The translations under genes and the position numbers were made by a program. Positions 29,766-41,300 of a stretch of DNA of 64,000 nucleotides are shown here, in pieces (the first letter of the stretch is position 1; the number at the start of each line of letters is the position of its first letter). Source of the stretch: Chara braunii (taxonomy: Eukaryota; Plantae; Charophyceae); contig BFEA01000034.1 of assembly GCA_003427395.1 (NCBI GenBank), positions 1,269,927 through 1,333,926 on the forward strand. The letters are read 5' to 3'. The notes below the pieces were generated by a model. It was given only the letters and a program-made list of their open reading frames with translations. It had not been told where the DNA came from and did no database searches.

Positions 29766-31399
29766 ATTCGGTGTCAGAGATGGTTCGAGATCAGCGTTAA
29801 CGGCGCTGGTGCCATTGTTACTTGGTGTGCTGACCAAGCTTCTACGTAGTAAGAATACATTGGCGCTGGCATTATTTTGCCATTCCCGGGTAGAGGGGAG
29901 GCTGGTAGGAAGGCTGTGGCACAGCGTGGGAGTTGTGGCGACAACGGGTGTGTGTGGGATGATGAGAGCATGCTAACATGCATTTTGGCTGAGGTGGCAT
30001 TGTATTGCATTGTGGGTGGTACCAAGGCTATGATCGGTCATCGAAATGCACGTCGGCTCATTTGGTGAGAAATCTGTGGTTGGGGGCAGCTATCTCCACG
30101 TGTTCCCTTACCTTATCTCCCCGTCTCAGTCTCTTCTTACTGTAAGTGTCCACTTTTGGTTCAGGAGTCGTGAGCACTCTACCTTGAAAGTCGACATTCT
30201 TCCTGGCGGTGCATCTGGAAGGAGAGGGCGGTGCCTCTGAAGGGCCCTGGTCGAAGCACGGGTTACTGTCACCATGCCAACCCATGGAAGCAGAGTATGC
30301 ATGCTTTGCTGCTTTGTCCTTTAAACCACCAGTACACGGCCTCAACCTTGCAGCAAAATAACTTGTCGCCACAAGAAGTAAAAGGCGGGTTCGGGGCAGG
30401 GTCGGAGCATCAGAAGGTTTTCTGAATTTTGGGCCCATGTCAAATCCATTGTCGGCGTGAATACCCTTACAAGGGTATCCGTCGTGGATTTTGCAAGTGA
30501 CAGAAAATAAGTTTGATTGAAGATTTGAGTAACCCGTCCGAGCCGACATTGTGTTTTCTTTTACATTGATGGAATGGTTGACTTGAAGTAGAGAGTGTGT
30601 GGGCGCGCAGGTTTGAGGCGCGCGTGATGTTTCCTATTGATACTATAGAGTCGGCATTTCCGCCGGCAAAATTTTGATTTTTGATTAGAACCAGGAAGGG
30701 TTTTCTCTATGTTGAAGTGACCATGGTGCGCGTGTGCTCATACGAAGACGTCATGGATTGTAATGTTGCTTTGGCCGGTGATTGGAGCATGCGAGATAAA
30801 ATAGAACGGGTGCAGGGACTTCCGCGCGGTGGATGCGTGAGGTTGACGACCGTGGACTTAGTTGATAGCCTACAGTGTGGCCTTGAAACACTTCATGGGA
30901 CCCGCGCGCCTCGTGGTACCCACTTACATAGGTGTGCATTAATACTAAGCTCAGGCTTGGGCCTAACACTATTGGTTATGTTATTAGAGTTTTATGCGGC
31001 AAGTACGGGGATCGAGGACGGCGACCAGCGACGACGGAGCGTTGGAGCGGTTGGAGATGCCAAGGGGTTGAGGCCTCGGCGGGGCTATCCCCCTTGGTTT
31101 TTGTTGTTGGGCCTATTCGTGGGCCCAGTCGACATAACTGAAAGGGGCGCCGACGGTTTCCCTTTCCTAAAGAACCGGTTCCCGATGCTAAAATTTTTAT
31201 TTATTTATTTATTTTATTATTTTTGTCGGTCCTGTTTTTGCGATGCGGCAGCAGCATCGGTACCAAGGTTGTTTGCGGGGTACCGCCCAGCGTGGGCTGA
31301 AGGGGCCAGCAGTTGCAATCTCCGCGAAGTGGCCGTCACAATAGTCGAGGACCTTGACCACACGCCCCTTTTTGGCGCGCCAATTTGGTTCCTACATGT

Positions 31400-31642
31400 T
31401 CGGGATGTTAACGAAATTCCTCTATCCTGCCTGTCTGGAAAACACGGACAAAAAAGTCAACGTACATGCGGGCTTGTGGGCGATTAGCCCACCAGGCGGA
31501 AGAAGCCGAGTGGCGGGAAGGTCGGGTCCACCAGCCACCCAAGATCTGTTGTGACCGGTTTGAGTGTGAGCATGCTCGTGGGGCCCGAAAGATGAGGGAG
31601 CTGCGCTTTGGGGGCCACGGTGGAGGCGGCATCGGTGATGAC
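31400..31642 (+). rRNA. Diverged 25S/28S rRNA-derived fragment A (pseudogene)
   Basis: CTGTCTGGAAAACACGGACAAAAAAGTC resembles CCGTCTTGAAACACGGACCAAGGAGTC. GAGTGTGAGCATGCTCGTGGGGCCCGAAAGATG resembles GAGTGTGAGCATGCCTGTCGGGACCCGAAAGATG. Confidence 0.75.
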
Positions 31643-38332: not shown

Positions 38333-41300
38333 ATAGGAAAGGGGGTCATAAAGGGGTAAAAGAATTGAGAGATTAACGAACTACTTGGATCAAACTGATG
38401 TGGGATTCAGAGGGATGTTTGTTTACGCATGTTTGCGGGTTCTTGTTTGGGGCATCTCTTGGTAGCTTTAGTTGTTTAGATGCTCGCCGAGTGTTGGAGT
38501 CATAGACTAGAATGGATGATGGGAAGGGAAAATTGGGATACGATTGGACTGACCTTACTAGAAGTTAGGACTAGTGGTAGCTCATGATGCCATCTTCAAA
38601 AGAGGATTGTGTGGACTATCACCTGCTCTAACGATCAAGTGAGGGTCACAAGTTAGTCCCAAGTATAGTTGTACTTTGTTTCTGCATTTTCAACTTTGTA
38701 TAAATCTTGGCAGTCTCCTGTTCCTACGGGAAGCACTGCCGAAATTTTTACAAATCTGAAAGAGTTAGTCATTTTTGGACATTTGAAAATTCTGAAAAGA
38801 CACTTTTCCTGAGGGTAGAGATGCCGAAATTTTGTGAAATTTAGCGAGTTAGATTATTTTCTGCTAAGGAAAACTTTGGCAAGGAGATGTCAGTGCTCTC
38901 AATAACTTCTACGGAAAGTAAGGTAAACGTTAGTAAGGAAGATAGGCTATGGAGTGGTGTTGATCCTCCATCTGTCTTGAACGAAGTACTTGGTCCGCTT
39001 TGGCTTGAACTGTGGTGCANNNNNNNNNNNNNNNNNNNNNNNNNNNNNNNNNNNNNNNNNNNNNNNNNNNNNNNNNNNNNNNNNNNNNNNNNNNNNNNNN
39101 NNNNNNNNNNNNNNNNNNNNNNNNNNNNNNNNNNNNNNNNNNNNNNNNNNNNNNNNNNNNNNNNNNNNNNNNNNNNNNNNNNNNNNNNNNNNNNNNNNNN
39201 NNNNNNNNNNNNNNNNNNNNNNNNNNNNNNNNNNNNNNNNNNNNNNNNNNNNNNNNNNNNNNNNNNNNNNNNNNNNNNNNNNNNNNNNNNNNNNNNNNNG
39301 GTGTTGATCCTCCATCTGTCTTGAACGAAGTACTTGGTCCGCTTTGGCTTGAACTGTGGTGCAGGTCAACGAATTCGATTGAAGGCTTGATTCGTTCGAC
39401 TTGATCCTACGAAGGATCATTCTTCTGTTATCCCTTGATAACAGGTCGGTTTACGACACTTCCCTGCTTCTACATCTCAACTGAAAGCCTTGGCTCTTGG
39501 GGGTTTCCATCTTTCTTGTGATTTTCACCCAGATTTCTAAGTGGCCATTTTTAAAGACTGAGTACCTTTGTTGCGGGTTGGTGGAAATTGGTTGGGGCTT
39601 GTATGCATAAGGCAGGGTGTGAGTCGCAAAAACGCAGTAAAGTTGACTCCCTTACTGTGTGTGATGTTGTTGTTTGAACTTTGTGTGATCGCAGGTATGC
39701 GTATAAGATCTTTGGATTGAGTTTGATGATAGTTTGAGTATTGTTCAAATGTTGATGGACAAGCCACACTACTATTGTGAGAGTGATCGTCTGAAACCAC
39801 ACAAACTTCTGCTTGAACTACCTCTGCTGAGCATAATTATAATGAGAACCCTATAGTGGTCGTGAAAAGTGATAGCCTCAAATTTCATAACCCCTCGTAT
39901 ACATATGTGTATACATTCCCATTTACATGTACATATACATCAGTATTCGTGCGGTCTGCTGTGACCGCGTGCGGGAGTTAAACAAACTATGTCTGAGAGA
40001 AAAGAAAGATCCACTTTTACCTTTTGCTTTTCAAGGTTATCATGGTTGGACGTTGTTGTTTGTGGCAACCGTCAAAGTCAAACCCCTTGATTTCACTCCA
40101 GGCCTTGGATGATGGAGCTTGCCTCCTAGGCGACGAGAGTTGATTGCCACCACAGGCTGGAACCTGTGTACCACCCACTCTCCGTAGAGTGCAGAAGAGT
40201 GTGTGGTGATCAACCACCTTGGCGGTTATCTATCGTTGGGAGATTAACCCCTCAAGGCACGTGTCAGCCGATACTTGAGTATGGAAACGTGACCCTCGAG
40301 ACTATCGAGGGTCGCGTGATTATGGGTATTACATAGTATTCCATCGATGCGATTGCGTTCGTATACTTGCATTGCTAGTCGATATGAGAAAGCCCTAGCG
40401 TCCGCGCGGTTTTATCTTGAGTCTCGCGCACGACGCCTAACCGATTTTCGTGGTAAAAGGTTATGGTTTGGATACTGAAGGGACTATCAAAGTTTTGTTT
40501 TTGTGTGTATTTTATTTTTTGTGTGGTGTAACGCGTGGTGAGTGGAATGTGTCCTAGTCGACCGACGGCGAGTCGTGCTTGGGACCTCAGCCCCCCAATG
40601 CATTGATTCACGTGCGGGTCCGATTGAGGGGCGTTAACCGCACGTACCCCCAGTGCCACAGAACGAGAAAATGCCCTCGGTCGGGCGACCTCTGCGATTG
40701 CATACGAAAAGCTATCGCATGTGATTCGATAGCTCGGCGGGGATACACCCACCCAAGGGATGGTGACAACTCCCGGAGGTGGAGGTAAGTTGTGCCTCGC
40801 GTGACCCTATCCTGTCGTAGGGGTTCACGAGAGGTATGGCTGGCGCACTCGGCCGGAGCGGCAAAAGGCTCTGCGACGAAGTCCTACAAAATCCTGCGTG
40901 ACACGGTCAAGAGGGTCTCCCTACGGGACCGATGCGCTCGATACCGCACGTCCCAAAAAACAAAACAAGCTTTGGCCGCGATTGTAGTTGGATACACTTT
41001 TTGGAGTACTCCGTGTGAGTCTGCCCTCAGTGAGGGCACTTCGGTAGAACGAAGAACACGGGGAGCACTGTCAGACTCACGAAAAAAGAACAAAAGAAAA
41101 AAAACAACAAAGCTTTGGTCGTGAAAGTGGTTGGATGCATTTCAACGACGCTAGTGTGAGTATGCCCCCAGACAGGGCGTTTTGAGAAAGAGGCGCTGCC
41201 TTGCTGGCAGGGAAAGGCAGGAAAAAAAAAAAGGAGAAAAAATAAACCAGCAACGTTCCCTCTCCTCGTAATAGTGGTCAGATGCATTTTGGAAAGTGAT

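Follow-up and report, generated by a model that had tools for sequence, protein, structure and literature searches.

A stretch of slightly more than 10 kb in the Chara braunii contig BFEA01000034.1 carries the two ends of one long terminal repeat (LTR), and this raises the question of whether a single solo LTR can be so long, or whether a shorter LTR has been enlarged, fused to another insertion or misassembled. The stretch occupies positions 30450–40943 on the plus strand of the DNA that was analysed, a segment of 64,000 nt referred to here as the window, and all coordinates given below (Table 1) are those of the window.

The sequence begins with TGTCGG and ends with GCTCGATA. A 19-nt motif from just within position 30450 is found at four loci in the window, which are the start of this sequence and the starts of three more LTRs of the same type, all on the minus strand: a solo LTR (A), and the 5' and 3' LTRs (B5 and B3) of an element, B. 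Seven matches to the motif were counted over both strands (0.03 expected by chance; none of 100 shuffles reached seven), and the scan of the window detected none elsewhere within the 10-kb sequence. An 18-nt U5 motif is present at three places, in this sequence, A and B5 (0.02 expected by chance). These counts, exactly four loci for the start motif and three for the U5 motif, give the sequence one U3 start and one U5 end, as the initial annotation had proposed. The termini are of the TG...CA type with a short terminal inverted repeat, TGTCG at the start and CGATA at the end, the latter being one transition away from the CGACA of A and B3. The position of the end was set by alignment, which places GATA at 40943 opposite GACA in A.

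The initial annotation had also seen neither a PBS nor gag, and the searches agree with it. Two PBS types were searched for and none was found at the sequence, the sole B-type motif in the window lying behind B5; none of 11 open reading frames in or beside the sequence matched Pfam, and tblastn with 15 TE peptides gave no match in the two parts of it that were searched. As in a solo LTR, no PBS or coding region is attached. Protein searches with its open frames returned 0 of 1856 candidates, 0 of 822, and none in 1.84 billion representatives, while pattern scans for other copies gave no stretches in viral or metagenome contigs and six in prokaryotic genomes, none extending past 20 bp. Calling the flanks near-matching was generous: CCAT and CCGC agree at two of four positions and differ at the other two, as against four of four in A and B. 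CCAT is likely to be a decayed 4-bp target-site duplication of the NCGN type, the decay being readable as one CpG loss and one transition, and if the left copy did lose its CpG then the flanks fit NCGN as in A and B.

Table 1. Features of the 10-kb sequence and of related LTRs in the window.
Feature	Position	Strand	Details
Left flank	30446–30449	+	CCAT
LTR 5' (U3) start	30450–30600	+	TGTCGG; alignment to A, B5, B3
LSU (26S) rRNA piece, degenerate	31402–31594	+	Rfam RF02543; blastn 69%, 8/110 loci
Next LSU rRNA piece, continues the first after a spacer	31811–32033	+	Rfam; blastn 71%, 42/110 loci
Duplicate of preceding LSU piece	32058–32196	+	68% to 31908–32046; 41/110 loci
Decayed array, about five 0.5–0.6-kb units	32300–35200	+	60–68% identity
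Tandem duplication of 253 bp, with (GA)n(G)n runs	34491–34999	+	96% identical
SSU (18S) rRNA piece, degenerate	35201–35293	+	Rfam RF01960, E 1.4e-5; 85%, 25/110 loci
Low-copy block	35415–36449	+	1–6 times single-copy depth outside its rRNA piece
LSU rRNA piece, 3' region, degenerate	35646–35846	+	Rfam 60.4 bits, above gathering score; 78%, 90/110 loci
High-copy 3' part of LTR	36500–40943	+	mostly hundreds to thousands of times single-copy depth
Array of ~63-bp units, length variable among relatives	37283–38340	+	tandem families D10, D16
N gap	39020–39299		280 N; edges overlap exactly by 64 bp
Conserved U5 block and LTR end	40530–40943	+	66–69% to A and B5
Right flank	40944–40947	+	CCGC (NCGN); no PBS after
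Solo LTR A	19284–25303	-	6.02 kb; perfect CCGT duplication
Element B	45658–56997	-	gag-only; ACGT duplication; internal 25/49-bp arrays
Element B, 3' LTR (B3)	45658–48223	-	2.6 kb, internally deleted; 89% identical to B5
Element B, 5' LTR (B5)	52122–56997	-	4.9 kb; PBS and gag follow

As assembled, the sequence is 10,494 bp long, including the 280 N of the gap, and closing the gap at its 64-bp overlap would reduce it to 10,150 bp; the range of ~10.1–10.5 kb first estimated from the overlapping edges is borne out. The gap is likely to be a negative one. Two of the six gaps of at least 20 N in the window have edges that overlap in this way, and the second, at 51623–51707 (78 bp, one mismatch), suggests that this assembly tends to produce negative gaps. 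Among the read contigs listed from three DNA runs and one RNA run, none resolved the gap at 39020–39299. It is very improbable that the sequence is an assembly artefact joining unrelated pieces at the gap or at its repeats: the scaffold is indeed a short-read one with seven gaps, and the sequence includes long GA and G runs as well as the 280 N, but the gap edges overlap exactly, the copies of the 253-bp duplication are not a doubled read because they differ by 4%, and contigs with 0–4 differences cover 35001–36542 in DNA runs X1 and X4 (these runs may themselves be the source of the assembly, and the contig overlap into the high-copy part is only ~30 letters). The 10-kb sequence is a real and unusual feature of ~10.2 kb, with both LTR ends and no genes.

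The closest comparison is provided by A and B. Element B is, judging from its coding content, likely to be non-autonomous, as its internal 3.9 kb consists of one gag ORF and tandem arrays; the gag product matches PF03732 weakly (E 6e-4, below the cut-off), and its single relative, a hypothetical protein of Chara braunii (E 6.7e-29, 36% identity), points to a charophyte host. We take its PBS to be of the type known from Athila. The target duplications of A and B are identical at four of four positions when read as 4 bp, and at two of five and one of five when read as 5 bp. A repeat of ~260 bp, with short inverted ends by eye, is present at 29508–29771 and 56998–57242, and one copy served as the target of B.

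The 10-kb sequence shares its terminal motifs, its U5 block and its target type with A and B. Over the first 50 alignment columns it is 74–76% identical to A, B5 and B3, which are 88–94% identical among themselves, and over 200 columns its identity to them falls to 45–52%. Similarly, in the U5 block, A and B5 share 78–82% identity, compared to the 66–69% of the 10-kb sequence to either. In these alignments it is placed as an outgroup to A and B at both ends, and such equal distances at the two ends would be expected of a single third family. Apart from the first ~150 bp and the last ~400 bp, however, there is no convincing alignment to A or B. A block from 36500 was suspected by eye to be homologous to a middle block common to A and B, and was dropped after sliding alignment gave z values of no more than 1.5 (a high z at the gap is an effect of the Ns).

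These relationships bear on the idea that the sequence is a chimera or deletion product, either with a U3 start and a 3' part from different insertions or as a two-LTR element minus its inner ends. TE fragments are densely nested in the window, only two of the four target-site positions agree, the left and right flanks match no common window sequence, and no empty site could be reconstructed from paralogs in the window, all of which would suit such an origin. Nonetheless, we regard it as quite unlikely, since at least two deletions would be needed to account for the lack of a further U3 start, an inner U5 end, a PBS, gag and pol, and both ends place the sequence as an outgroup to A and B. A deleted two-LTR element, the alternative that the initial annotation had itself named, found no support.

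The 5' 6 kb of the sequence is distinguished by five degenerate pieces derived from nuclear 18S and 26S rRNA, which were found by Rfam and by blastn against 110 fetched rRNA loci, are all on the plus strand, and are 69–85% identical to reference rDNA. No nuclear rRNA piece was detected in the remaining 53.5 kb of the window, which includes A and B, and the rRNA elsewhere is confined to a plastid insert. That insert (~6830–8300, 21% GC) carries tRNA-His (7333–7406) with 16S and 23S pieces and sits in a gypsy pol, where ~70 and ~190 bp of the target are duplicated. The shared strand of the nuclear pieces is a weak argument for capture from RNA, as they amount to three independent regions only; part of the spacer between the first two LSU pieces resembles, by eye, what we take to be rRNA on the opposite strand. 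The pieces are likely to be passengers, rather than promoters or functional rRNA.

Much of the rest of the 5' part is repetitive. In the decayed array, five of the ten unit pairs exceed all 200 shuffles, and four units share a motif of ~90 bp (at 33075, 33539, 34122 and 35000) that also occurs at 1498–1585, outside any LTR. The motif has a very high read depth (~45,000 at 35045 in DNA run X1) and some RNA reads. The 253-bp duplication, at 96% identity, is the youngest event of the array region. In all, duplications and captured rRNA make up ~4 kb of the length, and when the rRNA (849 bp), four of the five array units (~2.3 kb), most of the 63-bp array (~1 kb) and the gap are subtracted, ~6 kb remain. 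This is the size of LTR A, and was counted toward a U3 that had expanded by internal growth. The folding of the 63-bp units did not go beyond that of shuffles (z -0.8 and -1.5).

The abundance of the sequence at other loci was estimated by aligning three DNA runs and one RNA run to positions 35001–41210 at 80% likeness. Four DNA runs, all from one study, contain 59–67% of the sampled words of the stretch, and contigs identical to the locus gave single-copy depths of ~9–12, 6.5 and 13–15 in three DNA runs. Summed depth should not be read as copy number, and only its order of magnitude counts because overlapping short contigs inflate the high values. Outside its rRNA piece, the four bins of the low-copy block have 1.3–5.7 times single-copy depth, while 20 of the 22 bins from 36450 to the end of the sequence range from 59 to 25,000 times, the two gap bins being at 7–55 times. 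Depth spikes at 35208–35414 and 35622–35828 coincide with rRNA pieces and likely come from true rDNA. The 3' part outnumbers the 1-kb block by a factor of 10 to 1000, and over nearly its whole length by a factor of at least 10, so that most relatives lack 35415–36449; depth within the 3' part itself varies several hundred-fold, so patchy depth is normal for this LTR. The 3' part is thus abundant and piecewise collinear at other loci within the 35001–41210 covered, and the block is low copy. Among the 15 joints listed, of 837, those in the 3' part leave out 593 or 1037 bp of the array of 63-bp units, and collinear relatives with shorter arrays therefore exist. No second full-length collinear copy was found, and no contig piece among those listed spans 35001–41210. 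None of the 24 loose ends listed, of 5845, marks position 40943, and the end there rests on the alignment with A and B. The right flank is high copy as well, with a depth of ~19,000–25,000 at 40979–40985 in DNA run X1; a high-copy tandem unit of ~150 bp lies directly to the right of the sequence at 40955–41315. From the RNA run, 426 of 8.9 million reads aligned, 334 of them less than 90% alike and five at 99% or more, with no piles of starts or ends, and they say nothing firm on this locus.

The depth profile could also mean that a normal 5–6-kb LTR of the group was enlarged after landing, by one or more insertions of a low-copy repeat or of repair filler with rRNA scraps. This is the leading alternative, and it is close to the shorter LTR with nested insertions that the initial annotation had named. 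Depth steps sharply near 36500, from ~5 to ~5000 times single-copy, microsatellites are present, the array motif is shared with the non-LTR site at 1498, and the relatives of the low-copy block are only partly collinear: two contigs of 1331 and 1492 bp match it at ~80–84% over 35581–35894 and 35687–36244, but align over only ~300 and ~540 letters, respectively. Even so, growth after landing is somewhat unlikely, as no TIR, inner LTR, poly-A tail or target-site duplication was found for an insert, none of the 15 joints listed (of 837) skips the low-copy block, and the excess length is largely self-duplication. TSD-like repeats at the border between low- and high-copy parts were at about chance level, and inverted pairs were limited to eight short, imperfect ones in 31740–36600, with none in 30300–31680 and no convincing nested-element repeats. 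At least one of the rRNA pieces sits in the low-copy block, and the contig over 35581–35894 crosses both edges of this LSU piece, so the capture predates the present locus.

The explanation we prefer, with roughly even confidence, is that the sequence is a solo LTR from a rare variant with an expanded U3, in a gypsy-like group of charophytes whose target duplications are 4 bp long and fit NCGN. Its single start and single end are in the right order, and the group already includes LTRs of 4.9–6.0 kb with internal tandem arrays and 4-bp NCGN duplications; against it, the occurrence of the ~90-bp array motif outside LTRs at 1498 would fit a foreign insert, and a duplication matching at two of four positions cannot tell one insertion from two. 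The U3 of that variant had likely grown by ~4 kb, and we hold with the same roughly even confidence that this growth at least partly preceded the present insertion.

It is known that reverse transcriptase slippage and template switching can add duplications and pieces of co-packaged RNA, that U3 changes in the 3' LTR pass to both LTRs at the next replication round, and that LTR–LTR recombination leaves a solo LTR. Under the expanded-U3 explanation, slippage in earlier replication rounds would have produced the tandem units in U3, template switching onto co-packaged rRNA would have placed the 18S/26S pieces among them, and these gains would have been copied into both LTRs in the next round. The element would have landed in an NCGN site and duplicated 4 bp of it, recombination between its LTRs would have removed the internal region, and point mutation would later have decayed the target-site duplication and the terminal CA. 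The more far-reaching form of this, that a charophyte gypsy subfamily transposed with 10-kb LTRs whose U3 repeatedly captured 18S/26S fragments by template switching, is put forward tentatively. Of the original proposal of a ~10-kb solo LTR, the termini, the lack of coding sequence and the length have held; a 10-kb LTR type is not established by them, given the rare 5' block, the ~4 kb of duplication and rRNA, the two-of-four duplication and the lack of a second collinear copy among the sequences searched.

The target-site duplication of Ogre elements is 5 bp, and the 4-bp duplications of A and B depart from this. Ogre/Tat/Athila (OTA) elements of the Ty3/gypsy group nevertheless resemble the 10-kb sequence in having very long LTRs and in the tandem arrays of their expanded non-coding regions, insofar as they are described in the available texts. 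There, Ogre LTRs are given as 1.9–6.5 kb (PMC6431247), OTA LTRs as up to about 5 kb (PMC6317226), and LTRs of more than 3 kb are called uncommon (PMC3485330). At 10.15–10.5 kb, the sequence is 3.6–4 kb longer than the top Ogre figure, which bears out the initial view that it would exceed the LTRs usual even for Ogre; LTR A, a clean solo at 6.02 kb, is near the top of that reported range. In the same survey text, 5-bp duplications are reported for 93.4% of surveyed elements, and Phygy, a moss non-chromovirus gypsy, is given an insertion preference for NCGN (PMC6317226), a motif seen here in A (CCGT), B (ACGT) and the right flank of the 10-kb sequence (CCGC). Phygy elements are described there as rather short, their interior taken up by coding sequence (PMC6317226), in contrast to the 4.9–10-kb LTRs here and the gag-only B. 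With a defining feature of each group lacking, and no pol linked to the sequence or to B in the window, it was filed under neither OTA nor Phygy. Cassandra and Ajax likewise have rRNA-derived sequence inside the LTR, namely 5S promoter sequence (PMC10946416, PMC10886601), but as far as these accounts go they are miniature elements with conserved 5S promoter boxes, whereas the pieces here are decayed 18S/26S with no sign of selection, and Rfam detected no 5S in the sequence. The available part of a 2024 review lists 5S in LTRs and 28S in a SINE, and does not list 18S/26S in LTRs there.

If a 10-kb LTR was indeed reverse-transcribed, the known size range of LTRs would rise by more than half over the 6.5 kb of Ogre, full elements well above 20 kb would be implied, and this LTR would be the longest found on record, the available literature on long LTRs having yielded none of 10 kb. 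The 18S/26S pieces gathered in such a U3 would preserve, as fossils, past events of template switching onto packaged rRNA. According to its available text, the main plant survey admitted LTRs of no more than 6000 bp, and by that design would have missed such elements (PMC6317226). The claim of record length depends on a second collinear copy. If growth came after insertion, the sequence would be an ordinary decayed solo LTR, and even then LTRs of 5–6 kb with 4-bp NCGN targets would be worth describing.

Other elements are present toward the right end of the window. Broken ORFs at 60260–64000 on the minus strand are presumably hAT-like transposase remnants, although one frame (62981–63811) had no match in Pfam. 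On the plus strand, at 58762–58817 and 58955–59010, two matches resembling type III hammerheads (42.4 and 36.8 bits, below the gathering score of 48.5) lie in a 193-bp tandem repeat beside a gap, and by their sequence may possibly represent a retrozyme- or Penelope-like element.
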